DNA of 64,000 bases from a virus. Shown here one piece after another: positions 13,300 to 61,596 of the stretch. The position numbers were made by a program, and so were the translations under genes. Position 1 is the stretch's first letter; the number at the start of each line of letters is the position of its first letter. The stretch covers positions 10,774 through 74,773 of IMG/VR virus record IMGVR_UViG_3300018080_000167; one strand, 5' to 3'. The notes beneath the pieces are model-generated. The model worked only from the letters and a program-made list of their open reading frames with translations. It was not told the DNA's origin and did no database searches.

Positions 13300-13336
13300 C
13301 TATATATAATATCTACTAAATAGAAAATTTTTCCAA
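13300..13336 (-). promoter_or_regulatory. Class B phage promoter
   Basis: TTGGAA-N13-AGTAGATATTATATATAG; one of six copies. Confidence 0.7.
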
Positions 13337-13346
13337 TTATTTTATA

Positions 13347-13565
13347 TTAATTTTCTGTTTCTGCACCAACGCCATCTATTGTTTCGCCTTCAAAGTTTAC
13401 TTTACAGCGATATCCAGCTCTACATTCATCAAAGTTTGGACCATCACATGGGCAAATTCCTTCTTCGAGAAGACAGCCACATTCCTCATATGGATTGTAA
13501 AGTCCATCATAATCGTTGTCGATTAAAAAACTTTCAATAATTTCAATTATCCTTGGATTGACCAT
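13347..13565 (-). CDS. Cys-rich acidic hypothetical protein
   Basis: YDGLYN..ECGC....CPC..C.AGY. Confidence 0.6.
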   Translation of the reverse strand: MVNPRIIEIIESFLIDNDYDGLYNPYEECGCLLEEGICPCDGPNFDECRAGYRCKVNFEGETIDGVGAETEN

Positions 13566-13593
13566 CTTGATTTTCCTTAGTTATTAAAAAATT

Positions 13594-13613
13594 AGGGGGG
13601 CAAAAGCCCCCCC
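13594..13613 (-). terminator. Rho-independent terminator
   Basis: GGGGGGC-AAAA-GCCCCCC hairpin after the DUF932 gene. Confidence 0.7.
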
Positions 13614-13619
13614 AATAAA

Positions 13620-14597
13620 TTATGCCGCTACCAATTTACCTTCTGCTGCTGCAAGGCTCATTTTTTCTGCGCGAATAGACATTTTGTCAAGACTGCCGTC
13701 AAAAAGCATATTTTCTACTCGTCTTGCTGTTTTTTGCTCGCTTGTAAGATTTTTCCCTTTAATGCCACGATGATATTGGATGTATTCTATGCTAGCGTTA
13801 AATAACCCATATGCTGTCCCACGCACGCCAGGAACGTCCATTCCGCGCCCATTTTGGATCAGCTTATGAAGAAGCAAACGATTATCTTTAGCGCGACGGA
13901 TCGTGCCTTCTTGCTTAGAATCAGGCAAAGGAATAAACTTATCAACAAAAACATTTGCTGTCTTAACATCGATATTTGCACCTGAAAGATATTTCATTTC
14001 TTCTTCAAAAAGATCAAAATACTTATTGGCAGAACCAAAAATTGTGTACGCCTCATCAAGGCGCTGTTTGTAATTAAGTGTATGGCGCAACCTTACGGCG
14101 CGATTAGCACGCTGTGCCTTGGCTATTGTTGCTCTAAGCATATTCTGACACCAAATGCGAGTGGGGGTAAACGCAACGCCTATTCCAGATGACCCATCGT
14201 GTGAATTATAAAAAATTGCATATTTTTCAATTGGGTCGCCATTTACTGGTTCAAATGTTCCGTTTCCATCATTGATAACTGCCTGAAGCCAAACACGCTC
14301 TCCATTCCCAAAATATCCAGCATTTTCAACCTTTAAGTTTCCGTCTTTAACGAGTGGATCAAGAACACCGAGGGCTTCGGCGTTTTGAATGACATGGTAG
14401 CGGTTTCCAACAACACCGAGCTGCGTTCCGTCATCCTTTACATTGACAAACGCATCTTTTACCTGTTCACGATTACCCAGGATTTCAGCATACATAGGAA
14501 TTTTACTTACTTTGAAATGAATCCCTGCATTTTCAAGCGCTTCTTGTGCACTACTTACATTTTCTACTTTCCTTCCTACTGTTTCAAAAAGCTCCAT
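13620..14597 (-). CDS. DUF932 / TIGR03299 phage-plasmid-like protein
   Basis: LGVVGNRY..IQN.EA, NSHDGS, TPTRIWCQN, RHT, RGTAYGLFNA. Confidence 0.88.
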   Translation of the reverse strand: MELFETVGRKVENVSSAQEALENAGIHFKVSKIPMYAEILGNREQVKDAFVNVKDDGTQLGVVGNRYHVIQNAEALGVLDPLVKDGNLKVENAGYFGNGERVWLQAVINDGNGTFEPVNGDPIEKYAIFYNSHDGSSGIGVAFTPTRIWCQNMLRATIAKAQRANRAVRLRHTLNYKQRLDEAYTIFGSANKYFDLFEEEMKYLSGANIDVKTANVFVDKFIPLPDSKQEGTIRRAKDNRLLLHKLIQNGRGMDVPGVRGTAYGLFNASIEYIQYHRGIKGKNLTSEQKTARRVENMLFDGSLDKMSIRAEKMSLAAAEGKLVAA

Positions 14598-14625
14598 TTT
14601 TTTACTCCTTGTAAATTTGTTATCC

Positions 14626-14665
14626 TCTCATACACTGCACATTGGATTGAAATTTTTGATTATTT
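14626..14665 (-). promoter_or_regulatory. Class A phage promoter
   Basis: TTTCAATCCAATGTGCAGTGTATGAG; one of 13 copies. Confidence 0.7.
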
Positions 14666-14823
14666 TTTTAAATTTTTATTTCCATATCCCAACCGCAGTG
14701 ACAAGATACAACAATATTATTTTTGTTATAATAAATGTTTTCTACATCGATTATTCTGCAACATTCTGGACAATAAAGTGGTATTTCTGGATAATTTTCA
14801 ATTTTTTGACCCACAATAAACTC

Positions 14824-16411: not shown

Positions 16412-16653
16412 TATACACTTCTCCTAACAAGTTTCAAAATTTTGGCTTTCAACTTTAGAGTCTTGTCCTTTGTAACAATGTCGCTTGTGTGAAAAAGATT
16501 ATTTTGCAACATTGCAAGTTTAAGCTGCGCAATGCTTACGGCAGCGTCCATCTTTGTTGTTGATATCATCATTTCTCCTTCATATTCTTTAATAAATGTT
16601 TTTACTTTTTGTAATTCAATTTCAGCTTGTTTAGCCAATTGTTTAAATGTCAT
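16411..16653 (-). CDS. Hypothetical protein
   Basis: Coupled ORF. Confidence 0.55.
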   Translation of the reverse strand: MTFKQLAKQAEIELQKVKTFIKEYEGEMMISTTKMDAAVSIAQLKLAMLQNNLFHTSDIVTKDKTLKLKAKILKLVRRSV

Positions 16654-17176
16654 TTTTTATTTGCCTACGTATGTTTCCTTTTGCCCTCTGTACTTTTAAA
16701 TATGCTGTAGATTTACTTTTGTTTATTTTTTTAGCAATTTCTCCATATTTGTATCCCAATAGTCTGAACAACATTGTATTATCGCTGTCATGTTTTGCAA
16801 GAAGCTCTCTAACATATATTTCTTCAGCTATATTGTCGTGCTGTGAAGGCATTGGAACATTAGCCGAATGTAATGTTTTGCTACAATCTGGTATTTCATC
16901 CTTGTATTTCTTCCAGTATTGATAATTCGGAAACTTTAAATAATGCCCCTGGGTGCATAACATTTGTTTAATTGAACCAATTGCCCTTTTCATCATTGTT
17001 ACTATTATTTGTTTGTCTTCAAGTTCAATATTTTTCTTTCTCAAACTTTCATATGTTTCTATGGCTGCGAGGCGCTGCTCTTGCAAACAATCTTGATCAT
17101 TGAAGCGCTCACATTCATATAGGTTTGTATGGAAAAATCTATCAAGCTGTTCTAAATAGTGTTCAATTGGTTTCAT
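16643..17176 (-). CDS. Sigma-factor-like protein (region-4 HTH)
   Basis: DCLQEQRLAAIE (region 2-like); GYKYGEIAKKINKSKSTAYLKVQRAK; AGGAGG RBS before MKPIEH. Confidence 0.6.
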   Translation of the reverse strand: MKPIEHYLEQLDRFFHTNLYECERFNDQDCLQEQRLAAIETYESLRKKNIELEDKQIIVTMMKRAIGSIKQMLCTQGHYLKFPNYQYWKKYKDEIPDCSKTLHSANVPMPSQHDNIAEEIYVRELLAKHDSDNTMLFRLLGYKYGEIAKKINKSKSTAYLKVQRAKGNIRRQIKNDI

Positions 17177-18890: not shown

Positions 18891-18932
18891 CCTTACATCT
18901 ATTACACATAGGATTGACTTTTTTAATTAATT
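18891..18932 (-). promoter_or_regulatory. Class A phage promoter
   Basis: GTCAATCCTATGTGTAATAGATGTAAG. Confidence 0.7.
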
Positions 18933-20059: not shown

Positions 20060-20069
20060 TTTTTTTCTC

Positions 20070-20110
20070 CTTACATCTATTGCACATAGGATTGATTTTT
20101 TAAATTAATT
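20070..20110 (-). promoter_or_regulatory. Class A phage promoter
   Basis: ATCAATCCTATGTGCAATAGATGTAAG. Confidence 0.7.
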
Positions 20111-20966: not shown

Positions 20967-21700
20967 TAGTTTATCTTTCTTAATTTTAATAAACTTACAA
21001 TTCTCACCTTCTTTTTAATTCTAACACATCTATGTTGAGAAGTATTCCTGTTGCCATTTCCTCTATTTCTCCAAGCTCTTCGATTTCAGGATATTTTTCA
21101 GATAAACTAGATGTAATTTCTTTTATTTTTGTTGCTCTGCTCTCTATACATTTAATTATTGTCATTAATGTTCTCCTTTATTCAAATATTAAGCCATTTT
21201 GCCACATGAATTTCAATGGTTGATTTTGCCATTTCTGGATATTTGTTAAAAAAATTAAAATATGCTTCTCTTGCCTCTTCTCCTGCTTTGACTTCTGCTT
21301 CAATAAGCTCTAATGCTTCTTCACAGGCATTGTCGATATAATCAATATTCATTATGTTCTCCCCGTTTAATTCCTATTTAATATAGATATTATATCCGTC
21401 TATTTCAAACATTGTACGATGTTCACAACACATATATCCAGATTTGACAATACGATTTTCTTCTGGAGATATTACAGTCGTAAATTTAATATCATTGTCA
21501 TAGTTTTCGTGTTCGCAGTCTCTACACTCACAACATTGGGTTTTATTCATAATGTTTTTCTCCTAAAATAAAAAAAGCCCACGCCAAAAGAGGTGTTCTA
21601 ACGTGGACTATAAGGGAATATTTTTTAAATAAATTTATCTAAATAGGTTGAATCTGACAAGTCAAATCATCTATTTAGGTTCCAGCTTTATTGAATTTCC

Positions 21701-21742
21701 TTCTCACATACTACACGCCGGATTGAAAAAATGAGATTAAAA
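21701..21742 (-). promoter_or_regulatory. Class A phage promoter (heads three short ORFs at ~21000-21550)
   Basis: TTTTAATCTCATTTTTTCAATCCGGCGTGTAGTATGTGAG. Confidence 0.7.
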
Positions 21743-22033: not shown

Positions 22034-22547
22034 AATTTCCTCCTAAATGGTATTTTAATAAGAAAAAAAGCACTTTTTGTTTTTTAATAATACTACAAAT
22101 AAAAAGAAGAATAAGAGAGAAAGGAGTAGAAAGGGGAAGGGAGTTAGGAAAAGGTTGGTGGGTTGGGTGTTTCCTATTGTGAGATGCGCCAAAAAAATGA
22201 TAATTCTCTAACGATTTTTCCGTTTTGCTTCCGCCATTAACGTTGCCGCCCCTGCTATTACTCTTAGTAATTGCTGTTTTTAGCCAAAAAATTAACTTTT
22301 TTTTAAAAGGAGCCATTATTATTTTTATTCTCCCGACTTTTAATAATATTATTATAACGAATATTATCTAACGTATTATTGCCAAAAAAATCCTTTTTTA
22401 CATTAATAACTTCACTAATAATAGCATTTTTACTGCTTTTTTTATGTCGCCATTATTATCTAAGGTATTACGGGTGTGCCCTTATTATACAAATCGATAC
22501 AAATCGTTGTTTTTGAGCCAAAAATGGCACTTTCATTTAACACTTCT

Positions 22548-22698
22548 AACCGTCATATGACACTTTCCAACCGTCATATGACACTTTCTGAACCGTCGTG
22601 TGACATTTTCCAACCGTCATATGACACTTTCTGAACCGTCGTGTGACACTTTCCAACCGTCATATGACACTTTCTGAACCGTCGTATGACGACTTCTC
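22548..22698. repeat. Iteron-like tandem array, 7 units of 21/22 bp (43-bp higher-order period)
   Basis: AACCGTCRTRTGACACTTTC(C/TG) at 22548, 22569, 22591, 22612, 22634, 22655, 22677. Confidence 0.9.
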
Positions 22699-22703
22699 AA
22701 TTA

Positions 22704-23851: not shown

Positions 23852-23866
23852 AATAATACTCCTTTC

Positions 23867-23903
23867 TACATATAATATCTACTATATTGTAATTTTTTCC
23901 TAA
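23867..23903 (-). promoter_or_regulatory. Class B phage promoter
   Basis: TAGGAA..AGTAGATATTATATGTAG. Confidence 0.7.
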
Positions 23904-24099
23904 TGAATTTGAAATAATTTTATTTTCTCTATTGACAGAGGGGTTCCCTTTTCTCCCTTCCCATAATTTAAGTTTATGGCGGCGGCTACCCCTTCAGGGT
24001 AAGGAGGGGGGAGCTATGCCTAACCATTATTTTTAGCAAAAAAAGCCTAAATAAAAAAGGCGCTCGCCGATTATGAAAAAAGAGACATTTTTTGGAAAA

Positions 24100-24460
24100 C
24101 CTATTGCTCATCGCTTCTGTAGAGCGTCGAAAGCACGGTGGCATATTATATTTTCCTACATGTTCGGGTGCTGGTTGCAAAGGGAACCAGGGAAGCAGAG
24201 CCAGCGCGCACCGTGAGAGGCTCACTAAAATCGATGGTCTCCCGCCACTCGTGGCGATATATGCCTCCCGCTGTTTCCAGCTACTAAGCAATATATTCTT
24301 TTCCATCGACACCTCTCTTTTTCCCTAAAGCTATTAACTTAAGGTACTTACTAATTAGGTAGCTTTCAAACCTTTGGTTTTTTTATTAAAGAGAGTAACC
24401 TGTCTGAAATCTCTCTAATTTAACAGCAAAGCGATTCGCTGTAAAGAGAACCTTTCTCTA
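24100..24460 (-). ncRNA. Candidate large structured non-coding RNA
   Basis: Nested helices, a GCTG-GAAA-CAGC tetraloop on the minus strand, elevated GC, directly downstream of a class B promoter. Confidence 0.5.
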
Positions 24461-24496
24461 TTATATAATATCTACTAAAATGCCTCTTTTATTCAA
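24461..24496 (-). promoter_or_regulatory. Class B phage promoter
   Basis: TTGAAT-N14-AGTAGATATTATATAA. Confidence 0.7.
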
Positions 24497-24796
24497 TATT
24501 TTTTAAAATTTATTTTTTTTAATGAAAATATTATAGAATTTATTATAAAATGTATTACTGCAAATATTAAAGGGGGGAGGGTTAAAGTGTAATTATAAAA
24601 GAAGTTATTAAGGATTGCCAATTTGGCAATTTCATCTCCAGTCGCTCTCGCTCTCTGAACACAAAAAGGTAATTATTATAAAAGTTATTAAAGTAAGTAT
24701 TACTGTATAACAAAAAATAAAGAAGGCGACGATTATGCCGCCCTCAATATTTTCTTGATCTTAAAAAACTATTATTATTTTGGATCAATAGAATTA

Positions 24797-25677: not shown

Positions 25678-25688
25678 TTTTTTACCTC

Positions 25689-25730
25689 CTTACATCCTTC
25701 ACACGTAGGATTGAAAAAATAGAATGAAAA
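25689..25730 (-). promoter_or_regulatory. Class A phage promoter (leftward of divergent pair)
   Basis: TTTTCATTCTATTTTTTCAATCCTACGTGTGAAGGATGTAAG. Confidence 0.7.
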
Positions 25731-25923: not shown

Positions 25924-25964
25924 TTTTAATAAAAAAATTCAATCCGGTGTGCGGTAGATGTAAG
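25924..25964 (+). promoter_or_regulatory. Class A phage promoter (rightward of divergent pair)
   Basis: TTTTAATAAAAAAATTCAATCCGGTGTGCGGTAGATGTAAG. Confidence 0.7.
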
Positions 25965-26010
25965 CAAAAATTTAAATTTTACAAAAAACTATTATTAAAG
26001 GAGAGGCAAG

Positions 26011-27317: not shown

Positions 27318-27487
27318 CCAACGGGAGCAAAATCGCTCCCAAAGTAATTAATACGTGCAGTAATAGGTTTCGGCTTTCTCTGAGGTATTGGCGCGTGTAT
27401 TAAGGGCTTTATTACTTCTGATCTTTAAAATATTATTGTAAGTATTAAAAAAGGTATTATTGTTTAAAAACCAGGAAAATTTTTAAA

Positions 27488-27530
27488 TTTTAATATTCAA
27501 TTTTTCAATCCATAGTGCAGTAGATGTCAG
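27488..27530 (+). promoter_or_regulatory. Class A phage promoter
   Basis: TTTTAATATTCAATTTTTCAATCCATAGTGCAGTAGATGTCAG. Confidence 0.75.
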
Positions 27531-27557
27531 CAAACAATCGAATAAAAGGAGAATAAA

Positions 27558-27857: not shown

Positions 27858-27900
27858 TTTTAATCTTCAATTTTTCAATCCAGTGTGCAGTAGATGTGAG
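27858..27900 (+). promoter_or_regulatory. Class A phage promoter
   Basis: TTTTAATCTTCAATTTTTCAATCCAGTGTGCAGTAGATGTGAG. Confidence 0.75.
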
Positions 27901-27929
27901 GGGAAAACAATAACAATTGGGAGGTTATT

Positions 27930-28833: not shown

Positions 28834-28875
28834 TTTTAATATTCAATTTTTCAATCCAGCGTGTTATAGGTGAGA
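28834..28875 (+). promoter_or_regulatory. Class A phage promoter
   Basis: TTTTAATATTCAATTTTTCAATCCAGCGTGTTATAGGTGAG. Confidence 0.7.
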
Positions 28876-28904
28876 GGAAACAAAATTTTTATTAGGAGGT
28901 AAAA

Positions 28905-29102
28905 ATGCTTTTTCCATTTGCTGAATACGAGAAACGCGCTAAGAAAATGACAATCGCTGAACTGTTCTATGCCAAAAGAGATGCCTATCGTGCAGCACAA
29001 TCTTTGAAGGGCGCAGATGTTCGAGGCAAGGATGAGAACTGGTATATGGATGAGTGTCATACCTATGGCGATGAAATAAGGCGGCGTCAAAAAAACGTAT
29101 AA
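28905..29102 (+). CDS. Hypothetical protein
   Basis: AGGAGG RBS; ELFYAKRDA..A...WYMDECHTY.DEIRRR. Confidence 0.65.
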   Translation: MLFPFAEYEKRAKKMTIAELFYAKRDAYRAAQSLKGADVRGKDENWYMDECHTYGDEIRRRQKNV

Positions 29103-29359
29103 TATAATTCACACAAAGGAGGAAACCTTATGTATTATATTATTGACTTTATTATGACGTTGCACGAAAAAATGGTTGAAAGAAAATTTCAAAAGAAGAA
29201 AGATAAAATTCGCAAAAAATGCAGAAAAAATCAGGTTACAAAGTCACGTTTCAAAGATAGTTCTATTGTTTAAGAAATTAAAAACTTTAACTTGGTGGGG
29301 ATGGTGCGTTACCATCCCCTTTTTTTATTATTGAAGTTATTAAAGTAAAAAAAATAAAA

Positions 29360-29400
29360 TTTTAATATTCAATTTTTCAATCCAACGAGTAGTAAATGAG
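29360..29400 (+). promoter_or_regulatory. Class A phage promoter
   Basis: TTTTAATATTCAATTTTTCAATCCAACGAGTAGTAAATGAG. Confidence 0.7.
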
Positions 29401-29430
29401 AGGGAAACAAAGATTATTAGGAGGTTGAAA

Positions 29431-30139: not shown

Positions 30140-30145
30140 AAATTT

Positions 30146-30175
30146 ATGCCTTGCCTAATGGTAGGGCATTTTTTT
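30146..30175 (+). terminator. Rho-independent terminator
   Basis: ATGCCTTGCC..GGTAGGGCAT followed by T-run. Confidence 0.7.
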
Positions 30176-30289
30176 ATGTCCATAAAACATTATTATTGTA
30201 GATATTAGTGCAACGTATTAGTGTAAAGCCACTAAGAAAAAATAGGTAGGTTTTCTATCGTATGATGCAAAAAAATTACATTTTTTTAA

Positions 30290-30328
30290 TTGAATGTATT
30301 AGTGCGATTAGTAGATATTAAATGTAGG
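30290..30328 (+). promoter_or_regulatory. Class B phage promoter
   Basis: TTGAAT-N14-AGTAGATATTAAATGTAG. Confidence 0.7.
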
Positions 30329-30335
30329 TGATATT

Positions 30336-30842
30336 ATGAAAAGAAAAGAGCATAAAATTATTGACTGCATTGAATGCAAACATTGTTGCAAGTGTAATAC
30401 TTGGAAACCGCTTGATGCATTTTATAAACGCAAACGTAATTTGGATGGGTTGAAGGTTCAGTGTAAAGATTGTGAGGAAGAATACCAAAAAGAGCTTCGG
30501 AAAACAGACGAATGGAAAGAATACCAAAGAGAATACAAACAGACAGAAAAATACAAAAAATACAAAAGAGAATATCAAATAGAATATCAAAGAGAATATA
30601 TATCAAGAGAAGATGTTAAAGAAAAAAAGAATGTTAGAACAAAAACAAGCCGTTTATTAAAGAAATTATTACCACAATGGAAACGTAAATATATACTATG
30701 TGAGATATGCGGCAAGGTTCCCTATGAGGAATTTCATCACTTTGTGTATAGTGCAGATAAGCTGTTGTGCGGACTTTTTGTGTGCGGGGCGTGTCATACG
30801 AGTTACATAATAAATCTTCTGATCAAGCCCCATAGGGCTTAA
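30336..30842 (+). CDS. HNH-like zinc-finger endonuclease
   Basis: CCKC..WKPL..FY....DGL..QCKDC; CEICG....FHH.....VCGACH. Confidence 0.6.
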   Translation: MKRKEHKIIDCIECKHCCKCNTWKPLDAFYKRKRNLDGLKVQCKDCEEEYQKELRKTDEWKEYQREYKQTEKYKKYKREYQIEYQREYISREDVKEKKNVRTKTSRLLKKLLPQWKRKYILCEICGKVPYEEFHHFVYSADKLLCGLFVCGACHTSYIINLLIKPHRA

Positions 30843-31177
30843 AAATAAACCACTTTTTCAATCATATCTAATAAGCAAAATCAACTTTTATATCTTATGC
30901 TGTTCGCTCCCTAATAACAATAATGCGTTTACTAAAGAAGATATTATTGTATCACCATAGGGTAATATATTAAAGCAGTTATTAAAAAAGGTATTATTGC
31001 GACATCTGGATTGACATCCTGGGACAGATCCGCTCTCATCACTTAATGGTGTATGTATTATCGTTTATATTATTGCGCTTTCTGATTTATTAAGGAACGT
31101 ATTAGTGCAAGGCGGGAGGGGTATTAAAGAAGGTATTACTGTATTATAAAGATTAAAAAAATATCAGAAAACATCTC

Positions 31178-31193
31178 TGGCACAAAATTTGCA
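31178..31193 (+). promoter_or_regulatory. sigma54 (-24/-12)-like site
   Basis: TGGCAC-AAAAT-TTGCA. Confidence 0.45.
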
Positions 31194-31336
31194 AAACATC
31201 ATATAGGTGACCCATTTTTACCTACGTAATAAATACATACTTTGCAGATTAAAATTAAGAAATGTTGTAGCTTGGCATAGAAAATGCATCTAAGGATGGT
31301 AAGATTAAAATAATGTAATATAATAGACCAAAAAAA

Positions 31337-46176: not shown

Positions 46177-48816
46177 GTGAAATTTACAGAAAACGGAATG
46201 AGGCTACTGAGGCGAAGGTATTTGAGAAAAGACAATAATGGAAATGTTGTTGAAACACCAGAAGAGCTTTTGGACAGGGTGAGCAAATGTCTTTCGCATT
46301 CAGAAATTTTTTATGGCGGTAAAACTAAAAGAAAAAAATGGTATAATATTATTAAAAATTCTTTGAACAATATGGAAATAATGCCATCAACCCCCATTCT
46401 TTTTAATGCTAGAGATCCTGAAATAGAAAAACCAGGGGTACTGTATGCTTGTTTTTTTGTTCCAATGTCTGATTCTATTCAGGGTATTTATTCGTGCCTA
46501 CACCTTTGTTCTTCTATTTTTAGCGCGGGTGGCGGCATAGGGACAGATGTGTCGTGTTTGCGTGAAAATGGGGCTGATATAGGTAATGGTAGGGGCGTTA
46601 GTACAGGACCAATATCATTTTTGAAAGTATTTGATGCTTCGTCTGATGCGATTTTACATGGGGGGGTCAGAAGGGCTGCCGCACTTGCATCGATGGATGT
46701 TTCACATCCAGACATAGAGCATTTTTTGCGTGTTAAAGGGGAAAACTTACAAGAAATTAATAGACTTTTGGCAATTGTTAATTCTTCTAAAGATGGCATA
46801 TTGAAAAAATATATTCAAGCTGAAATTTCTAAGTTGCAGCAACTTAGTCATTTTAATCTTTCTGTTAAGATCACAGATAAGTTTATGGATGCTGTAAGAA
46901 ATAATAAAGATTGGGAATTAATTTCTCCACATACGGGAAGCGTTGTTAAAACAATTTCTGCCGCGAAATTATTTAACGACATTTGTAGGTGTGCACATAA
47001 TTCTGCAGAACCTGGGGTTATTTTTATAGATGAAATTAATAGGCATAACCCAATGCCAAACATTGGACCAATTAATGGAACCAATGCTTGTTCTGAGGTT
47101 CCGCTTCATGATTATAATGCATGTAATTTGATATCTGTTAATTTAAATAAGTGCTTAGCTAACGAGGAGTTTTCTTTTGATGAACTGAAAAGAATCAGTA
47201 GGATAGCGCTTCGTTGCGGAGAAAATGTAATAGATGTTTCTTCATATCTTGATGAAAAGATAGAGAATATTGTTAAAAATAGTCGTGGGATTGGCGTTGG
47301 CGTTACTGGTTTTGCAGACGTTCTTGTAAGGCTTGGAATACCTTACGATAGCAAAAGAGCTAGAGATTTTGTTCGTAAAATAACAAAGGTATTAACAGAC
47401 TCATGTCGTGAAGAGTCAAAAGAGCTTGCAAAAGAAAGAGGTGTTTTTAATAATTATAAAGGATCTCTAATGGAAAAAAAGGGATTTGTTGTTAGAAATG
47501 CATTTGTCAGCGCTCTGCAGCCTACAGGATCTACTGCGATACTCGCTGGGGCATCTCAGTCAATAGAGCCATACTTTTCATTGTTTTACACTAGAAATAC
47601 TCACGAAGGCGATGTGTATGTTGAGCTTAATGAAATTTTTATTGATAAACTTAAAAAAATGAATATTGATACAGAATGTGTTGTTAATGAGCTAAAGAAA
47701 GGTAAGCAGCTTTGTGATATTGATATTATCCCAGATGAAATAAAAAGAGTTTTTGTTACATCTCATTTAATTTCAGCAGAGGGACATGTCAGAATGCAAG
47801 CTGCGGCTCAAGAAAATATAGATTTAAGCATTTCTAAAACTGTTAATTTACCATCTAATGCAACAGTAAACGATGTAAAAAATGTTTATCTGTTAGCAGA
47901 AAAACTCGGTTGTAAGGGGTGTACTGTATATAGGGATGGCTCAAGAGAGGGTGTTTTGCATTCTGTAGTCGAGAAAGAAGAGAGCGATGGTAATGAAGAG
48001 TTGCGAGACTTTTTGTATAATAAATTTGTCAAAGAGGGGCTTACGGCTAAAGAGATAGCCGACATTCTTGATGTTTCTGAATCACAAGTTTTTTCAAAGC
48101 TTAAAAGGTTTTGTATTAAGAAAAGTGATAAAAACACTACAATTTCTGCCAAAAAAATAAAACTTACTCAATCACTAAAGGAAATTATAATAGCGAATCT
48201 TCTTGTTGGTAATTCTAAAATAAACACTGTTGAGAGTCAGTCGTCTTATAGACAAGTAAGTGATCACTGTGTTTATACTAAGAATATTCGCAAAAAATTC
48301 TTGGACAACGGCATAAACTGTTCTGAGATTATGACAATTGTGACAGATAAAATATATTATTATTTTGACACTGTATTCAATAGTAATATTTATAATTTAC
48401 CAGCAGATAATGATGTGGTAGATAAGTTAAGCAGCGACGAGATTGATACGTTATTGACAAGAACTTTTGTTAGACACCTTTTTCTTGTTGGCGGAGTTCG
48501 TACAGGAAGAGGTGGAATTAAGTTTTGTTCTAAACACGGAAACTATAATAACTTAAAGAAAATTATGCAGCTTGTTGAGAAGGAGCTCGGTGTAGAATTC
48601 AGCTATAAGCAAAAGGAAAACAACAATGGAATTGTTTATATTCCTAAGAGGTGTGCGGAAGACTTTTATAATTTTATAGAGTCTGGAGAGCAAATCAATA
48701 AGATTAATTCAATACAAAGCAAGGCTACTTGTCCAGAATGTGGTGGTATGCTTAATTTTTGTGAAGGCTGTAAGACATGCGCCTCCTGCGGCTGGTCTGC
48801 TTGTAGTATTGGCTGA
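46177..48816 (+). CDS. nrdJ: Class II (adenosylcobalamin) ribonucleotide reductase with inserted HTH + degenerate LAGLIDADG domain
   Basis: RRYL, PSTPILFNA, YACF, GGGIG, GGVRRAA, EPG..FID, TNACSE, QPTGS, SISKTVN, KGCTVYRDGSR, C-terminal CPECG..CASCGWSAC; GGAGG RBS before GTG at 46177. Confidence 0.93.
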   Translation: MKFTENGMRLLRRRYLRKDNNGNVVETPEELLDRVSKCLSHSEIFYGGKTKRKKWYNIIKNSLNNMEIMPSTPILFNARDPEIEKPGVLYACFFVPMSDSIQGIYSCLHLCSSIFSAGGGIGTDVSCLRENGADIGNGRGVSTGPISFLKVFDASSDAILHGGVRRAAALASMDVSHPDIEHFLRVKGENLQEINRLLAIVNSSKDGILKKYIQAEISKLQQLSHFNLSVKITDKFMDAVRNNKDWELISPHTGSVVKTISAAKLFNDICRCAHNSAEPGVIFIDEINRHNPMPNIGPINGTNACSEVPLHDYNACNLISVNLNKCLANEEFSFDELKRISRIALRCGENVIDVSSYLDEKIENIVKNSRGIGVGVTGFADVLVRLGIPYDSKRARDFVRKITKVLTDSCREESKELAKERGVFNNYKGSLMEKKGFVVRNAFVSALQPTGSTAILAGASQSIEPYFSLFYTRNTHEGDVYVELNEIFIDKLKKMNIDTECVVNELKKGKQLCDIDIIPDEIKRVFVTSHLISAEGHVRMQAAAQENIDLSISKTVNLPSNATVNDVKNVYLLAEKLGCKGCTVYRDGSREGVLHSVVEKEESDGNEELRDFLYNKFVKEGLTAKEIADILDVSESQVFSKLKRFCIKKSDKNTTISAKKIKLTQSLKEIIIANLLVGNSKINTVESQSSYRQVSDHCVYTKNIRKKFLDNGINCSEIMTIVTDKIYYYFDTVFNSNIYNLPADNDVVDKLSSDEIDTLLTRTFVRHLFLVGGVRTGRGGIKFCSKHGNYNNLKKIMQLVEKELGVEFSYKQKENNNGIVYIPKRCAEDFYNFIESGEQINKINSIQSKATCPECGGMLNFCEGCKTCASCGWSACSIG

Positions 48817-48825
48817 TAATGCAAA

Positions 48826-48840
48826 TAAACGTATAATACA
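48826..48840 (+). promoter_or_regulatory. Class C (late) phage promoter
   Basis: AAACGTATAATA; recurs before structural genes. Confidence 0.65.
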
Positions 48841-48893
48841 ATAGGTGCTATGTTATTTATCATAATATAAGCACTATAAAGAGAGGAGAAAAT

Positions 48894-49067
48894 ATGTCTG
48901 ATTTAGAACATTATGAAAAATTAAACGCAAAAGGTTTAACGCCAAAGGTGCGTGCAATCAATCCTAAGGCGGTTTCTGCTAGCGGACTTGGTGAATTTAG
49001 GCGCGATATTTCTGATGAAGAAATAAATCGTATTATTGAGGAAAATAGAATTGGACGCCTTGATTAA
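48894..49067 (+). CDS. Small hypothetical protein (57 aa)
   Basis: GAGGAG RBS; TAATG coupling to the sigma gene. Confidence 0.55.
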   Translation: MSDLEHYEKLNAKGLTPKVRAINPKAVSASGLGEFRRDISDEEINRIIEENRIGRLD

Positions 49068-49702
49068 TGCAAAAATACAATAAAGCAAAAATAGAAAAAT
49101 TGGCAGATAGTGGCGAGTTAAAATATGAAGATGTAAGTGACATAGTAGAGTATTTAATTAATGCCAAGTCAAATAAAATTTATCAGACTATAGGGATATA
49201 TGATAGAGATGATATAGCGCAAGAATTACGCATTAAATGTTTGAAAGTATTAAAGCGTTATTCATCTGACAAGGGAGACATTGAGAATTTTCTTGGCGTT
49301 TGTATTGACAATGCTCTTATTGATCTTGTTAGAAAACACACACTCAGGAAAAGCAACGTGTGTTTTTATTGTTTGTGTTATTCTAAAGGGGAATGCAAAT
49401 ATTATGACAACATAAAAGATTGTAAAAAATATAGTGATTTTCTTGCAAAGAAAAAGGAAAAGGAATCAATATCCTTGTTGCGTGGCAATTCGTCATTTGA
49501 ATGGCGTAAGATAATAGATCAAGAAGATTCTTTTTCGCACGACTACGATATAGACGAACAAATTAAGATTGTACGCGATAATTTGAACGAGAGAAGCAAA
49601 AAGCTTTTTGATCTTATTATTGCAGGAAAAAGTATAAAGGAAGAAGAAAAGGTTATCTTATTTCAGGAGGTTAGGTATGTTGTTCGGAGATATGTGTGTT
49701 AA
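49067..49702 (+). CDS. Phage sigma70-family factor (probable late sigma)
   Basis: YDRDDIAQEL.IK....LKRY...KG....FL...IDNALIDLVRK (region 2); Cys insert. Confidence 0.75.
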   Translation: MQKYNKAKIEKLADSGELKYEDVSDIVEYLINAKSNKIYQTIGIYDRDDIAQELRIKCLKVLKRYSSDKGDIENFLGVCIDNALIDLVRKHTLRKSNVCFYCLCYSKGECKYYDNIKDCKKYSDFLAKKKEKESISLLRGNSSFEWRKIIDQEDSFSHDYDIDEQIKIVRDNLNERSKKLFDLIIAGKSIKEEEKVILFQEVRYVVRRYVC

Positions 49703-50165: not shown

Positions 50166-51031
50166 AAAAAGATATTGAATATAAAATAAAAAGATACCTT
50201 TATGAGAATTATCAAGATAAGACAGACTCTCAGATGGCAGAAGAACTTGAGGTTGCAAGAAGCACTGTTGTAAGGTGGCGCAACACATTAGGTTTACAAA
50301 AAAGAAAAAAACAAAAGGGTGAAGAAACAGATATTTTAGAAAAATTTGAGGAAACATCTTCTGTAGACGTAAAGTCAATGACACAAAAACAGAAGAGAGA
50401 ATATTTTTTAAAAAAATTGCGGAATAATCCTAGATACCAAATTACTAAGGGGCTTCTTACAGCAGAAGAGTTGAATTTTTATGAAGCTAAATACATAGAA
50501 TATTCTACAAGTCCAGAAATAGAAACATTAACAGCGTATGAAGAAGACGATCTACATGAACTTACAATGACGCAAATCTCTAAAATGCGTATACAAAGAA
50601 TGGAATATGATGAGGTTGCTAATGGTGATCCTGTTCCAGATGTATCTCGCAATACTAAGGATAAAGATGAGACTATATTAAAACTTAAAAAAAGTCTTGA
50701 TCTTGAAAGATCTCAAAGACTAAGACGACAAGAAGATAGCGCTACAAATTTTATTAATCTTGTTAAAGAATTTAATAATGCAAAAATAAGAAATGTTGTT
50801 GGTAGAGAAGCTAATGCATTTAACGCATATGGAGATGAGTGCTTAAATAAAATGATAGAAGATGGCAATGCTTATGGTATTGAAGAAATAGATGTATCTA
50901 AATATTATGATGGAGGAAAGAATGGAGGAAGAAAAAAAGAAGAAGAATATAAAGAAAAAAAGGAAAAAGCAGAAAAGAAAAACTCCGAGGAAATTGAAAA
51001 AGATATGGGGGAAAAAGAGGCGCAAGAATAG
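50162..51031 (+). CDS. HTH protein, possible terminase small subunit
   Basis: TDSQMAEELEVARSTVVRWR; position two genes upstream of TerL. Confidence 0.5.
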   Translation: MKKDIEYKIKRYLYENYQDKTDSQMAEELEVARSTVVRWRNTLGLQKRKKQKGEETDILEKFEETSSVDVKSMTQKQKREYFLKKLRNNPRYQITKGLLTAEELNFYEAKYIEYSTSPEIETLTAYEEDDLHELTMTQISKMRIQRMEYDEVANGDPVPDVSRNTKDKDETILKLKKSLDLERSQRLRRQEDSATNFINLVKEFNNAKIRNVVGREANAFNAYGDECLNKMIEDGNAYGIEEIDVSKYYDGGKNGGRKKEEEYKEKKEKAEKKNSEEIEKDMGEKEAQE

Positions 51032-51542
51032 TCAGATTGATAACATTAAAAAATCTAAGAAAAAAATAAAGATTATTTTACCTACAATTATTGTTGACAC
51101 TAGGGAAAAATCGCCACATAAATATAAAAAAACAAAAGATAATAATGGTTACAAAATACAAAAGCTAGATGTTGGTGATTATTCACTCGAAGGATTTGAA
51201 GATTATGTTATTGTTGAGCGGAAGAATGGAATAGACGAGCTTGTCAATTGCTTTGGCAATGAGCGTGGAAGATTTATGAGAGAACTTGACAATCTTGCGG
51301 ATGTCCCATATAGGTATATTGTTGTGGAAGAAAGCCTTGGGAGAGTGTTTGGAAAACGTAGATTTTCTAGAATGGCTCCAAAATGTTTTTTATCTAACGT
51401 TTTCTCTGTTATTGTTAAACGTGAAATTCCTGTTTTCTTTTGTAAGGATAGGTCTGAGGCTCATGCACATATTTATTGGCTGCTATATAAGGCATATAGT
51501 GTCTATATGGCAGAACAAGCAGAGATTAACAAAGATGTATAA
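50922..51542 (+). CDS. ERCC4-domain nuclease
   Basis: IVDTREK, LDVGDYS, VERKN..DEL, RF.REL..L, IVVEE. Confidence 0.85.
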   Translation: MEEEKKKKNIKKKRKKQKRKTPRKLKKIWGKKRRKNSQIDNIKKSKKKIKIILPTIIVDTREKSPHKYKKTKDNNGYKIQKLDVGDYSLEGFEDYVIVERKNGIDELVNCFGNERGRFMRELDNLADVPYRYIVVEESLGRVFGKRRFSRMAPKCFLSNVFSVIVKREIPVFFCKDRSEAHAHIYWLLYKAYSVYMAEQAEINKDV

Positions 51543-51583: not shown

Positions 51584-53365
51584 ATGCCAATTATCACTCC
51601 AGATTTGTACTGGGCTCCTTCTTTAGATATAATGGATTTTGCAGATCCCCTTAAAGCTGGTGTGTCGATACAAAGTGACGACCCTATGGCAGAGATTGTT
51701 GCAATGTCTTTTCATAGCATTGGATGGTTTTCAAAATATATACTTGGCACAGAGCTTTGTGATTATCAAATTTGTTTTCAGAAGCTTATGTGGAGTAAAA
51801 AATATCCTTTGCTTATAGCCTCTCGTGGTGCGGCAAAAACATTTTCATTGGCATTATATTCTATTTCTAGAGGGCTTTTGTTACAGGGCAGTAAAATTAT
51901 AATTGTTTCTGCATCTTTTAGACAGGCTAAGCGTGTTTTTGAGGAAATAGAGGCAATTTATAGGCGGGCTCCATTGCTGAGAGCTGCTGCAGGTTCAGCA
52001 CCAAAAAGATCTGTTGATCATTGTTTGTTTAGGATAGGCGACAGTGTTATTAAGGCACTCCCCCTTGGTGATGGTAGCAAGATTCGTGGTGAGCGTGCTT
52101 CTACTGTTCTAGTCGATGAGGTAGATTCTGTTGATCAAGAAGTTTTTAATGTTGTTGTTAGGGGTTTTGGAGCTACACAATTAGATCCAATATCTAAGCT
52201 TAAAGAATCATATAGAAACATTAATAGTTCAAAGCAGCCTAATGTTGGGAACCAAATTATTATTAGTGGAACTGCCGGATTTCAAGATGGTAATTTTCAT
52301 CAGATGTATAGACAATATTTAAAAATTATAAATTGTCAGGCTCAAGATTATGGATATAATCTTGCAGATGAGTTGGGTGAGAATTATGGCGATACATTTA
52401 TTGATTATCGTAACTATGGACTTATGATATTGCCATGGCAAAAAATACCAGAGGGTATTCTTGATCGCGACTTGATTTCTAATGCTAAAATTACAATGTC
52501 TTCGATGTTATTTAATATGGAATATAATTGTATATTTGCAGATGTTTCTCGTGGATTTTTCTCTCATAAAGCCATAGATGGTGCTACAGCGAAGGGAATG
52601 GATGGCTTTACAGTTCAAGTAAAAGGCAAAGAAGATAGAGAATATGTTATGGGTGTTGACCCAGCTAGGACTGGAGATGCATTTGCCATTGTCGTCTTGG
52701 AAATTGGTAAGCCTCACAAGGTTGTTTATATAAAAACACTTTTGGATACTAAATTTTCTGAAAGTGTAAAGGTTATAAGGCGTATATTAGCAAAATTTAA
52801 TGTGATTAGAATAGCTATGGATGCTGGTGGCGGTGGACTTACAGTCGAGGAAATGCTTGAGAATCCAGAATATTTTGTAAATGATCAAAAGCCAATCTTT
52901 GATATTGAAACAGAAAAGAAAACAAGGGATGGTGAATATATATTAAATGTTGTTAATTTTACGTCAAAGTGGATTGAGGAAGCTAATTTCTTGCTACAAA
53001 AGAATATAGAAGACTGCAGCATAATGTTTCCAAGTCGTGTGGTAAAAAGTGAAGCATATAAAGATGATAAAACTTCTGAGTTGATAGATGATACATATGA
53101 AGAAGTGAATGAGTGCAAAAGGGAAATGTATCAGATATCTGTAACGCAAACTAAAAATGGCAATAGACATTTTGATATAGACCCAACACTTGAGGCAAAA
53201 AAGAAAAAGGTGAAGCCAAGAAAAGATAGATATTCTGCATTATTGTTGGCAAATTATTTTGCAAATGAAATCATTGAAGAAAAAGCTGGGAGAAAAACTT
53301 CTAAAGACAGAATATTACAGCAATGGGATGATTTTAATGGCGGATGGGTAGACCAAATAGAATAA
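51584..53365 (+). CDS. terL: Terminase large subunit
   Basis: SRGAAKT Walker A, IRGERA.TVLVDE Walker B, FNMEYNC.F, GVDPA..GD nuclease, KDRYSA. Confidence 0.9.
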   Translation: MPIITPDLYWAPSLDIMDFADPLKAGVSIQSDDPMAEIVAMSFHSIGWFSKYILGTELCDYQICFQKLMWSKKYPLLIASRGAAKTFSLALYSISRGLLLQGSKIIIVSASFRQAKRVFEEIEAIYRRAPLLRAAAGSAPKRSVDHCLFRIGDSVIKALPLGDGSKIRGERASTVLVDEVDSVDQEVFNVVVRGFGATQLDPISKLKESYRNINSSKQPNVGNQIIISGTAGFQDGNFHQMYRQYLKIINCQAQDYGYNLADELGENYGDTFIDYRNYGLMILPWQKIPEGILDRDLISNAKITMSSMLFNMEYNCIFADVSRGFFSHKAIDGATAKGMDGFTVQVKGKEDREYVMGVDPARTGDAFAIVVLEIGKPHKVVYIKTLLDTKFSESVKVIRRILAKFNVIRIAMDAGGGGLTVEEMLENPEYFVNDQKPIFDIETEKKTRDGEYILNVVNFTSKWIEEANFLLQKNIEDCSIMFPSRVVKSEAYKDDKTSELIDDTYEEVNECKREMYQISVTQTKNGNRHFDIDPTLEAKKKKVKPRKDRYSALLLANYFANEIIEEKAGRKTSKDRILQQWDDFNGGWVDQIE

Positions 53366-53377
53366 ACGTATAATAAT
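53363..53377 (+). promoter_or_regulatory. Class C (late) phage promoter
   Basis: AAACGTATAATA. Confidence 0.65.
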
Positions 53378-53391
53378 ATAGAAATTATCTA

Positions 53392-55371: not shown

Positions 55372-55377
55372 TTACAA

Positions 55378-55392
55378 TAACCGTATAATATA
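55378..55392 (+). promoter_or_regulatory. Class C (late) phage promoter
   Basis: AACCGTATAATA. Confidence 0.65.
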
Positions 55393-55408
55393 ATGAGGTA
55401 ATTTTTAT

Positions 55409-59190: not shown

Positions 59191-59288
59191 CTCTCTGTTT
59201 ATGATTCGAAAAGTGGTAGGAGTTAGGTTAATGAATATAAAATGTAGCAATAAAAAACTGCCAACATAGTTAGGAAAAGAAAATTTTG

Positions 59289-59305
59289 AAACCGTATAAT
59301 TATAT
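59289..59305 (+). promoter_or_regulatory. Class C (late) phage promoter
   Basis: AACCGTATAATTATA. Confidence 0.65.
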
Positions 59306-59362
59306 AGAGTAAGTTTATTATTGCATATCTTTTTTTTTATTTTTTCACATTGGAGGTTTAAA

Positions 59363-59830
59363 ATGGCAAATTATTACAAATATGGTGGAACTGGACGCGG
59401 TATTGCTCTTGATTCTGATGGGAAACTTTTACTCAATGCCGATCCATCTGCAAATGGTAATGCATTTGAATATGGAACTACCGGAAGAAAAATTAAAGTA
59501 GATTCAGACGGTAAGCTTTTAGTAGACATTGAGGGCGTTAGTACAGACGGGGAGCTGGAAACTGCATCTGGACTCTTGGACACAAGGATTTCGACACTCG
59601 AAAGTAATAAGTATACAGCAGTCCTTGCGTCTGGTGACTGGGCGGCATCTGGCACACTTTATTCTCAGACAGTAAACCATGCGCTCAACGATCAGCTTGT
59701 TGCGGTACAATTTTATGATCCGACCACATATGAAAACAAGACTGTTGATCATTATGTGTTACAAGATGCTAATAATGTAGAGGTGCTTGCTTCTGGTACA
59801 GATGCCCTTGGTATTATAATTATTAGATAA
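59363..59830 (+). CDS. Short virion fibre/decoration-like protein
   Basis: 2x YG.TGR...DSDGKLL; C-terminus shared with the next gene. Confidence 0.65.
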   Translation: MANYYKYGGTGRGIALDSDGKLLLNADPSANGNAFEYGTTGRKIKVDSDGKLLVDIEGVSTDGELETASGLLDTRISTLESNKYTAVLASGDWAASGTLYSQTVNHALNDQLVAVQFYDPTTYENKTVDHYVLQDANNVEVLASGTDALGIIIIR

Positions 59831-59851
59831 TTGTTTTAGAAAGGATTTATT

Positions 59852-61507
59852 ATGGGAAACATTTTTGATTATGGGCCAACTGGAAGAGGATACACAGTAG
59901 ACTCTGAAGGAAGGCTGGAAATGAATGCAAATGCGTCTGCTAGTGGGTACCCGCTTGCATATGGGGCGACTGGCAGAGTTTTGGCCGTAGATGGCAATGG
60001 TAAGATTTTGGCAAATATTACAGACGACTATAGGGACACACTTATCAATGCTGTAGACGAGACTTTTGCAAGTGGCGCTCCGTATGCTGAGATGAAAGGG
60101 GCAATTGTCCCATTTAAGGGCAACGTTTATGCTGCAGCAGCCTCTCCTTATGGTGGAGCAAGTGATGATAAAGTGTATAAGTTGTCATTAGACTCAAGTG
60201 GTGTGTGGAAGCCATCTCTTGTTTTTCAAGCTGGTTCTGGCGGTTGTGTTCCAGGTTTGGCGGCAGTTGGCGAACGGCTTTATGCTTGTGGTGGACAATT
60301 GAGTCCATCTGGTATTGTTTGGTACACAGAGGATGGTGAAAATTGGGATGTTTTGGGACATATGCCACATGAGCCAGGGGCGAATCAGCAGCCAAGAACA
60401 CTATTAGATATGTGCGAATTTAATGGTGAGCTTGTTGTTTCTACAGCGAACAACGTATATGTTGGTCCGCAGCCTGTATATAGATGGAACGAAACAGATG
60501 AAGAGTTTCAAGTATTAACTTATGCTTATACGCACGCCGGACTTTGGGGTTGGACATGGCTGTGTGAAGCTGCTGATGGAAAATTGTTTATTGCCGCTGA
60601 CAAATGTCAGACTATAAGTATTTATGATGGGGCTATTGTTAAAACGAAAAATTTGCCAGCTCAGGCTGGTTCACAGGCTATAGAATATAATGGCAACATA
60701 TATTTGATTGCAGATAAAATTTACAGAATTTCAGATGTTGATGGTATAGAATACAATGTAGATTTTGAGCTTGATAGTAGTTTTAAGTTTGGGTCTTATG
60801 CACAATATGCAAAACCTGCCTTAGTACATAATGGAAAACTTTGGGTGTCAGCGCAAGGTATGCTTTTCTGCAAAGACAACGATGAGTGGCTAACTGTCAA
60901 TACAGCATTAAGCGGAGAGCTTGGGTATTGTAGGCGAATGTATGAAAAAGATGGCAAGATTTATGCATTTTATAAAGCTGGCTATTTAGAATTTGAAGAT
61001 AATTTGCTTTCTCCAGGAGTTCCACAGCACAATAGTTCAATCGTTCAGCACAATGATTATATTCCACAAATCCTCGATTATCTTGGTGTAAGAAGTCAGT
61101 ATCAATCAGAGAATTATTATACTAAGCAAGAAAGCTATAATATAGACGCGAACAATAAGTCTTATATGATTAATAGTAAACTTAAACGTTCTCCTGAATT
61201 TAGTGATTCTGGTGTCCTTTCTTCTGATGATACTATTCGTTCTGCAATACAAAAGTTGGATGGACACGTTTCTTCTGGTGTTGGCAAATATAATACAGTG
61301 CTTGCTTCTGGGGATTGGGTTGCCTCTGGTGTACTTTATTCGCAGACTGTGACTCACAATCTTGGCGATCGTTTTGTAACTGTCCAATATTATGATCCGA
61401 CATCATATGTTAGTGTAGATGTTGACCATCATGTATTGACAGATGCTAACAATGTAGAAGTTCTTGCTTCTGGCACAGATGCTCTTGGTGTTATTGTAAC
61501 TAGGTAG
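59852..61507 (+). CDS. Long paralogue with inserted beta-propeller-like domain (putative receptor-binding fibre)
   Basis: Same N- and C-terminal domains as 59363..59830; central FKGNVYA/FNGELVV/YNGNIYL/HNGKLWV blades. Confidence 0.65.
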   Translation: MGNIFDYGPTGRGYTVDSEGRLEMNANASASGYPLAYGATGRVLAVDGNGKILANITDDYRDTLINAVDETFASGAPYAEMKGAIVPFKGNVYAAAASPYGGASDDKVYKLSLDSSGVWKPSLVFQAGSGGCVPGLAAVGERLYACGGQLSPSGIVWYTEDGENWDVLGHMPHEPGANQQPRTLLDMCEFNGELVVSTANNVYVGPQPVYRWNETDEEFQVLTYAYTHAGLWGWTWLCEAADGKLFIAADKCQTISIYDGAIVKTKNLPAQAGSQAIEYNGNIYLIADKIYRISDVDGIEYNVDFELDSSFKFGSYAQYAKPALVHNGKLWVSAQGMLFCKDNDEWLTVNTALSGELGYCRRMYEKDGKIYAFYKAGYLEFEDNLLSPGVPQHNSSIVQHNDYIPQILDYLGVRSQYQSENYYTKQESYNIDANNKSYMINSKLKRSPEFSDSGVLSSDDTIRSAIQKLDGHVSSGVGKYNTVLASGDWVASGVLYSQTVTHNLGDRFVTVQYYDPTSYVSVDVDHHVLTDANNVEVLASGTDALGVIVTR

Positions 61508-61542
61508 TAGTATTAAATAATAGGCATTTTTAAGGCTTTATT

Positions 61543-61570
61543 ATGGGGCAGATAATTCTGCCCCATTTTT
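61543..61570 (+). terminator. Rho-independent terminator
   Basis: ATGGGGCAG..CTGCCCCAT followed by T-run. Confidence 0.8.
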
Positions 61571-61577
61571 ATACAAT

Positions 61578-61596
61578 AAGTCGTATAATTATATAG
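61578..61596 (+). promoter_or_regulatory. Class C (late) phage promoter
   Basis: AGTCGTATAATTATA. Confidence 0.6.

Follow-up and report, generated by a model that had tools for sequence, protein, structure and literature searches.

The genes of an uncultured phage, represented here by a 64,000-nt stretch of DNA (the window; bases 10774-74773 of the 74,773-bp virus record IMGVR_UViG_3300018080_000167), appear to be expressed through a four-step transcription relay built on four distinct promoter-like grammars, by which they would fall into immediate-early, early, middle and late sets; to this relay as a whole we assign a probability of roughly 0.55. In the first step, the host sigma-A holoenzyme would fire two tandem canonical promoters at 32.7-33.0 kb, producing two tiny open reading frames (ORFs) and, through read-through of a terminator, the protein encoded by gene 33151 (gp33151). 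Thirteen class A promoters of ~45 bp, which have no hexamer pair, would then turn on the early genes, tRNAs and gene 16643, with gp33151, acting as an activator or in place of sigma region 4, as the best candidate for bringing RNA polymerase to them. In the third step, gp16643, an extracytoplasmic function (ECF)-like protein with an apparent region 4, would be the best candidate reader of eight or nine class B promoters, which head operons for nucleotide metabolism, repair and replication. Lastly, transcription would reach gene 49067 by running on past the last class B operon and later from the class C promoter of the gene itself, and gp49067 is the best candidate reader of the class C promoters (AAnCGTATAAT), which are devoid of a -35 element and precede the packaging and capsid genes. 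With its four grammars and three candidate factors, this relay offers a testable wiring diagram, drawn from sequence alone, for an uncultured phage lineage.

All class A, B and C sites in the defined sets are intergenic and co-oriented with the next gene, in a record of which 10.4% is intergenic. In an unbiased count of 9-mers in intergenic DNA, the class A and class B cores were the top non-AT words, an iteron word and a TATTA-box word ranked next, and no additional major class emerged. A scan with a generic sigma-70 consensus was swamped by chance in this AT-rich DNA (122 matches vs 90 expected). The genes separate by class, with small ORFans behind class A, nucleotide and DNA metabolism behind class B and virion genes behind class C. 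Moreover, several class A and class C copies lie just 3' of strong terminators, where the motif is the sole conserved element; because these terminators are directly upstream, a promoter must exist at those copies. Four promoter-like grammars, each heading a coherent gene set, had been proposed in the initial annotation, and they are supported by placement, orientation and shuffle tests: all 13 class A, six class B and five class C sites were found where it had placed them, and shuffled sequences gave no matches. We are quite confident, and much more so than of the relay, that the motifs are promoters of temporal classes, as judged from their sequence and setting. If the assignments of proteins to classes proved false, the motifs would remain a dependable guide to operons and timing in the annotation of this phage group.

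Host-type promoters were found only in the cluster at 32.7-33.0 kb, so that the bulk of the early genes is not behind host sigma-A promoters. The first of them, P1 (32736-32763, + strand), combines TTGCGC at 32736-32741 and TATACT at 32758-32763 across 16 nt and precedes a 43-aa ORF at 32799-32930. The second, P2 (32938-32965, +), with TTGCAC at 32938-32943 and TGn plus TATAAT at 32957-32965, belongs to a near-duplicate of the P1 unit and is followed by an ORF for a 30-aa hydrophobic peptide (32999-33091, +). An intrinsic terminator with a 9-bp stem and a run of seven T (33104-33126, +) lies 12 nt past the stop codon of this peptide, and gene 33151 comes next; the two sigma70-type promoters and the terminator ahead of this gene are thus arranged as first described. 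A ribosome terminating at the peptide stop codon could mask the nearby terminator stem, and read-through into gene 33151 could be coupled to translation of the peptide. The arrangement recurs in a metagenomic contig, L022, in the order of a consensus TTGACA-17-TGn promoter, a homologous 30-aa hydrophobic peptide ORF (5447-5539) and a gp33151 homologue with 34-35% identity, and no clear terminator was seen there between the peptide ORF and the homologue. In these two phages, the gp33151 family is the only substantial gene behind canonical host promoters.

The 13 class A copies share the form TTTTAAT-N5/6-TTTTTCAATCC-N3-GTG-N7-ATG-nGAGG, a block holding ~44 bits of information. With a leave-one-out position weight matrix (PWM) they scored 24.8-47.2 bits, no other site of the record exceeded the threshold, and 30 Markov shuffles contained none. 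A TTGACA/TATAAT pair at 16-18 nt spacing is absent from all 13. On the minus strand, the cores lie at 14624-14654 (heading the 325-aa gene at 13620-14597), 18891-18921, 20069-20099, 21700-21730, 25688-25718, 31868-31898, 32270-32300 and 32434-32464, the last two in tandem; on the plus strand, they lie at 25935-25965, 27501-27531, 27871-27901 (the best PWM score, 48.8 bits), 28847-28877 and 29373-29403, the last ~50 nt past a terminator at 29297-29319. They head small ORFan genes on both strands between 13.6 and 32.3 kb, and the copy at 18891-18921 heads an operon that runs through gene 16643 and two tRNAs (tRNA-Arg(TCT) and tRNA-Ile(TAT), the only hits of an Rfam search). Both the PWM and the operon map thus agree with the earlier placement of 13 class A copies before small early genes, including the operon of gene 16643.

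A different function for the class A block, mainly as a 5' leader, as an element of RNA processing or translation or as a hotspot of recombination, with weak promoters nearby having gone unrecognised, would explain why the copies lie where the small-gene cassettes of a plastic early region meet and why the conserved ATG is directly followed by a stop codon in six of them; with a start further upstream, half of the block would be transcribed. Such a function is hard to reconcile with copies that follow strong terminators within 50 nt and are the only conserved element there, with a fixed strand and a distance to the start codon of 15-51 nt in 11 of the 13 copies, and with an upstream AT-rich block that is conserved in L022 too, and we consider it highly improbable. 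With class A read as a promoter, its transcription start can be placed from the motif itself. In three copies, 3 nt separate the conserved ATG from the ribosome-binding site, so the start is not downstream of this ATG. The start is probably the G of the conserved ATG, since the invariant T-G (T followed by A or G in L022) fits a pyrimidine at -1 and a purine at +1. With this predicted start, TCAATCC would fall near -21 to -15, GTG near -11 to -9 and TTTTAAT near -38 to -32. TAGATG was rejected as a class A -10 hexamer, because it would leave no leader in the three copies with the ribosome-binding site 3 nt on, and identities as a sigma-54, ECF or sporulation-sigma promoter were each rejected on spacing and sequence.

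About half of the class A copies have a stop codon immediately behind the conserved ATG or within three codons of it (ATG-TAA or ATG-TGA; sites at 14629, 18896, 20074, 25693, 25960, 27896 and 32275). This ATG-stop is probably a by-product of the motif, because no ribosome-binding site lies upstream of it. Following the copy at 21700-21730, a leader of ~130 nt (21576-21705, -) closes with a strong terminator with a 14-bp stem (21609-21576) before the next gene, and it is a candidate small RNA or attenuator.

The AT-rich end, G start and purine-rich initial sequence of class A recall T7/SP6-type promoters, and its conservation is contiguous over ~27-45 bp with no hexamer pair. Class A could accordingly be read by an RNA polymerase, single-subunit or non-canonical, which the phage encodes or delivers with its virion and whose gene lies in the 59% of the genome that is unseen, and gp33151 would then be an ordinary helix-turn-helix (HTH) regulator, possibly a repressor, in keeping with KorA-type repressors matching its fold as well as sigma region 4 does. 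However, a beta-prime-like gene was not found in 75 kb, and the gp33151 family alone among substantial genes is placed behind host promoters in two phages. A search for a T7-type polymerase gave no hit here or in a complete distant relative, and the control genomes gave none either. Such a polymerase seems to us distinctly unlikely as the reader of class A, and gp33151 is the candidate that we prefer.

The protein gp33151 (33151-33636, +; 161 aa) consists of an N-terminal hairpin, a four-helix HTH (residues ~35-100) and a long C-terminal helix. Its AlphaFold model, for which four homologues were aligned, has a confident core at residues 35-100 with a predicted local distance difference test score (pLDDT) of 83-90. 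This core matched region 4 of SigF, Sigma-28, SigR, SigH and SigE with Z 6.7-7.0 over 56-65 residues (root-mean-square deviation 1.9-3.5), and KorA and UPF0122 with Z 7.5-7.7. Homologues of gp33151 range from 33 to 60% identity; one of them matches Sigma70_r4_2 (E 1.5e-4), and the Atlas neighbours of gp33151 are region-4-only clusters at 0.96. gp33151 itself had no hidden Markov model (HMM) hit, and its AlphaFold model contains no region-2-like helical domain. The predicted structure thus points to a region-4-like HTH at the level of fold only; gp33151 is a region-4-like HTH protein without region 2, is not a canonical sigma factor, and is closer in character to phage activators of the sigma-r4-only kind or to KorA-type HTH proteins than to a sigma factor. 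As for the three genes that the initial annotation had called sigma-like, 49067 does belong to the sigma-70 family and 16643 apparently does, whereas 33151 does not retain this description, being devoid of region 2 in both the HMM searches and the model. Queries of IMG/VR with gp33151, as a single sequence or as an alignment, gave no match.

Sigma70_r4-only late activators of phages are known as the LtrA class of the Ltr superfamily (PMC3753634). Similar to this class, gp33151 is small and has only a sigma-region-4-like HTH that is recognisable, and LtrA has been proposed as the activator of a phage promoter set. The Ltr proteins, however, are encoded next to terS in temperate phages and each activates a single late promoter, whereas gp33151 is a predicted immediate-early protein whose gene adjoins the early region with its 13 target-like sites and is 18 kb away from that of the terminase. 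It also carries additional conserved parts at both termini, and it gave no sequence match to Ltr families. A parallel can also be drawn to MotA/AsiA of T4, in that an early phage DNA-binding protein could replace -35 recognition at non-canonical promoters. Class A is nevertheless without the sigma-70-type -10 hexamer that MotA-dependent promoters keep, and no AsiA or MotA homologue was found. That the gp33151 family represents a new minimal specificity factor, which is immediate-early, has region 4 only and retargets the host RNA polymerase, is a tentative idea that we would not yet favour. If it is true, gp33151 would act alone or with a host sigma-A whose region 4 is displaced, its target would be a ~45-bp promoter without both classical hexamers, and the whole early programme would hang on a single very small gene that the host transcribes, under the control of a leader peptide and a terminator.

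Class B sites have the form TTGrAA, 17-18 nt, GATATT and then ATATATAG, in which the -10 word GATATT is also the late -10 word of phage SPO1. A 24-nt block around AGTAGATATT-ATATATAG is nearly invariant among eight copies and did not occur in shuffles. Six of these copies lie in the window, at 13298-13339 (-; heading a leftward operon with helicase, ThyA and dCMP deaminase), 23864-23905 (-), 24457-24498 (-), 30288-30329 (+; heading the endonuclease gene 30336-30842), 34059-34100 (+; heading the operon from 34139 to RtcB, with RNase H, a methyltransferase and an RF1-like protein) and 42232-42273 (+; heading the operon from 42284 to the ribonucleotide reductase (RNR) gene, which ends at 48816), and two were added to the left of it (G000 450-491 and 10618-10659). 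A further match to the core only (40362-40385, +; 21.5 bits) is inside the 3' end of RtcB and is a possible internal promoter for 40676 onward. The genes headed by class B encode thymidylate synthase, dCMP deaminase, an intein-bearing helicase, an SbcC-like protein, sugar-nucleotide enzymes, DNA methyltransferases, RNase H, polynucleotide kinase, an RF1-domain protein, RtcB and a class II RNR. The six copies reported at first are real and precede metabolic and replication operons, as had been claimed, and gene 49067 follows the last of these operons without a terminator. Downstream of the site at 24457-24498, ~530 nt of GC-richer DNA (23930-24460, -) contain no credible ORF and no Rfam match, and this region is a candidate structured non-coding RNA.

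An AGTAGAT core common to classes A and B, as put forward in the initial annotation, did not hold up: within class A the exact word occurs in two of the 13 copies only, and it is absent from both classes in L022. AGTAGAT probably lies in different registers relative to the start site in the two classes, and the resemblance is weak and probably coincidental. On the other hand, both grammars are recognisable in L022. This contig contains six class-A-like sites, each composed of an AT-rich tract, TAATCC, N3, G-y-k, N9 and a purine-rich start and each directly preceding a small gene, and two class-B-like sites of the form GATAT(T/A)-ATATATAG. Their presence there indicates that the gp33151 module and the A and B grammars recur with drifted sequence. 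Scans of IMG/VR with the class A and class B cores gave only single, chance-level matches per contig, and the AT-rich word of class B made its scan uninformative.

The candidate reader of class B, gp16643 (16643-17176, -; 177 aa, or 197 aa from an upstream ATG), is apparently a divergent ECF-like member of the sigma-70 family. It matched phrog_1740 (sigma factor) over residues 24-191 with E 3.6e-7, TIGR02937 across regions 2-4 (positions 29-164 of 165) with 16.7 bits, and r4_2 with E 1e-4 (22.3 bits vs a cut-off of 25.7), and its Atlas neighbours are ECF sigmas. Its gene belongs to the operon headed by the class A site at 18891-18921, and no strong terminator separates the two.

In class C, CGTATAAT was observed seven times vs 2.1 expected. 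Five copies, all on the plus strand, share the longer AAnCGTATAAT-n-ATATAG with no common upstream hexamer. They are found at 48825-48846 (9 nt past the RNR stop codon and before a 57-aa ORF and gene 49067), 53362-53383 (between terminase and portal), 55377-55398 (following the portal gene), 59288-59309 (following the major capsid gene and its terminator) and 61577-61598 (directly past a terminator), so that the class heads the 57-aa ORF and gene 49067 and then terminase, portal, capsid and further virion genes. These positions and the virion gene set agree with the earlier claim of five class C sites before structural genes. Of the other copies of CGTATAAT, the one at 37080 is intragenic and the one at 29096 is in a plausible promoter context, making 29091-29112 (+; in the early region before a 47-aa ORF) a possible sixth site, which is below the PWM threshold. 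In the host-type, B and C classes, 5-7 nt past the -10 word, (A/T)ATAG is followed by a purine-rich stretch, which is likely the transcription start as judged from its position.

The gene behind the first class C promoter encodes gp49067 (49067-49702, +; 211 aa), a member of the sigma-70 family whose linker contains four invariant Cys. One of its homologues is 71% identical to it. Its region 2 matched PF04542 (Sigma70_r2) with 25.7 bits vs a cut-off of 24, and it matched TIGR02937 (ECF/SigH-type) with E 2e-7, below the cut-off of that model. The HMM alignment ends at 138 of 165 and no r4 hit was obtained, and residues 162-210 form three confident helices in the structural model. The top Foldseek matches of this model, built with nine homologues, are all sigma factors, with weak E-values of 0.02-0.1. 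A search of IMG/VR with gp49067 alone gave no match.

Homologues of gp49067 with 26-39% identity are encoded in further relatives (L023/L024, L025 and L026), where the order is RNR, small gene, sigma, terminase, portal and capsid. CGTA-type motifs occur at the same late junctions of these relatives (CCGTATAAAT, ACCGTATTAAC, AACGTATCTAT, AGCGTATATAT, GTCGTAGTAAC and GTCGTAATAAA), in which the conserved core is CGTA and the hexamer varies among TATAAA, TATTAA, TATCTA and TAGTAA. Another relative, L027, has a gp49067 homologue and the same gene order, and no CGTA motif was identified in it. The late region of every relative is headed by this conserved sigma gene, and a distant relative with a complete genome of 168.6 kb has two genes of the sigma-70 family. 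Queries with gp33151 and gp16643 of the records behind L023, L024 and L026 gave no match. The relatives represent cases in which motif and factor have drifted together.

These comparisons bear on whether classes B and C need phage factors at all. The host sigma-A holoenzyme might read one or both of them, perhaps with phage modifiers such as a region-4 blocker that favours promoters without a -35 element, in which case the phage sigma-like proteins would act on different targets or on a narrower set. At class C, TATAAT is perfect in all five sites and one of them has TTGGCT at 17 nt, and the late promoters of Thermus phage P23-45, which have no -35 element, are served by a modified host holoenzyme. 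The relatives speak differently, since their late motifs keep CGTA and not TAnnnT, which favours a dedicated late factor over host sigma-A, and a conserved sigma gene heads their late region without exception. At class B, TTG(G/A)A(A/T/C) lies 17-18 nt upstream of GATATT in seven of eight copies, as a host-read promoter would have it, but the G at -12 is invariant in all eight and the 24-nt block is kept far beyond the needs of sigma-A. We consider reading of these classes by host sigma-A unlikely, and prefer gp16643 and gp49067 as the readers of classes B and C, respectively.

Within the relay, each regulator gene belongs to the class preceding its putative target: 33151 is behind host-type promoters, 16643 behind class A, and 49067 after the last class B site. 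From the cascade that was proposed in the initial annotation, the four grammars and the presence of a regulator gene one tier upstream of each set can be retained, whereas the pairing of each protein with its class is a suggestion from gene position. Several points weigh against the relay. gp33151 has no region 2, its fold matches are middling (Z <8), and the repressor KorA fits it no worse than sigma region 4 does. All HMM scores of gp16643, though mutually consistent, are under the curated cut-offs, and no homologue of it was detected in 5.8 billion proteins. The host-like geometry of class B and the TATAAT of class C mean that host sigma-A could read either, and other sigmas, activators or a phage RNA polymerase may be encoded in the unseen part of the genome, as the record is ~41% complete according to CheckV and genes are cut at both of its ends. 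In addition, the gene calls were made with a custom heuristic caller.

The GC content of 34% and the strong AGGAGG-type ribosome-binding sites suggest a low-GC Gram-positive-type host, and the phage appears to be large and lytic, with a low-GC host that uses Shine-Dalgarno sequences. The same proteins are also present on a 144,462-bp contig. No close relative was found among GenBank phages by megablast and tblastn; the terminase is 24-29% identical to those of the Bacillus Basilisk group and of a Clostridium phage. A sequential programme is established for the Bacillus phage SPO1, in which host sigma-A serves early, gp28 middle and gp33/gp34 late transcription (PMC13401047). Like SPO1, the present phage is a large, apparently lytic phage of a Gram-positive-type host in which the sigma-family genes are each located in what would be the preceding temporal class, and many closely spaced promoters head small genes of the host-takeover type. 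Unlike in SPO1, many of its early promoters are not of the sigma-A type and would be preceded by an extra immediate-early tier, the candidate first factor has region 4 only rather than being a full sigma, and the promoter words differ; no sequence relation of the phage factors to those of SPO1 was detectable, and the Bacillus phages with which its terminase shares 24% identity belong to another group.

Class C also resembles the late promoters of T4, which depend on gp55, gp33 and the clamp at TATAAATA, in consisting of an extended -10 element only with no -35, and in that the putative reader is a small divergent phage sigma. The differences are that gp49067 is ECF/SigH-like, apparently with two domains and a Cys-rich linker between them, and that the conserved word is CGTA-type. 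By analogy, the logic of the relay would be that of SPO1 and T4, with an extra immediate-early tier, early promoters that are not host-type, a region-4-only first factor and new words as the differing features. If the assignments are true, the early programme would not be run by the host primary sigma, a region-4-only protein would stand atop the cascade, and three orthogonal promoter/factor pairs would be available for Gram-positive synthetic biology.

Other elements may also take part in regulation. A CI-like HTH gene of the repressor type (4817-5281, -) lies within a class B operon of this otherwise lytic-looking phage and could be a further transcription regulator of the programme. Boxes of GT(A/T)TTA-n-TG and GTTATTAA are repeated, mostly on one strand, through long intergenic regions (24217-24796, 27318-27557, 29274-29430, 30140-30335, 30843-31360 and 32233-32470), where they sit between terminators and class A or B promoters. 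The same boxes are kept in L022 (480-650, 2945-3105 and 3755-4085), and they may be sites for a DNA-binding regulator.

Two genes of the metabolic set contain insertions, namely the helicase gene (1026-3494), with a Hint and LAGLIDADG intein, and the RNR gene (46177-48816), with an in-frame HTH and LAGLIDADG-like insert near the C terminus. An ORF at 50892-51542, just upstream of terminase, overlaps the end of the preceding gene by ~140 nt and was left as a 431-nt gap by the caller; the stretch is clearly coding and syntenic in L023 (11948-12390), and may represent either a gene that overlaps its neighbour or the product of a frameshift. Within a class B unit, about eight repeats of 21-22 bp centred on GTCATATGAC / GTCACACGAC lie beside an AT-rich stretch (22317-22703, -), and this array looks like replication-origin iterons or a partition site. 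Finally, GC-rich short direct and inverted repeats, with G/C runs flanked by AAAATAATTGGG-type words, fill 33680-34050 between the terminator of gene 33151 and the first rightward class B promoter. A similar cluster heads the syntenic region of L023 (150-330), and the cluster could be a packaging or replication signal.

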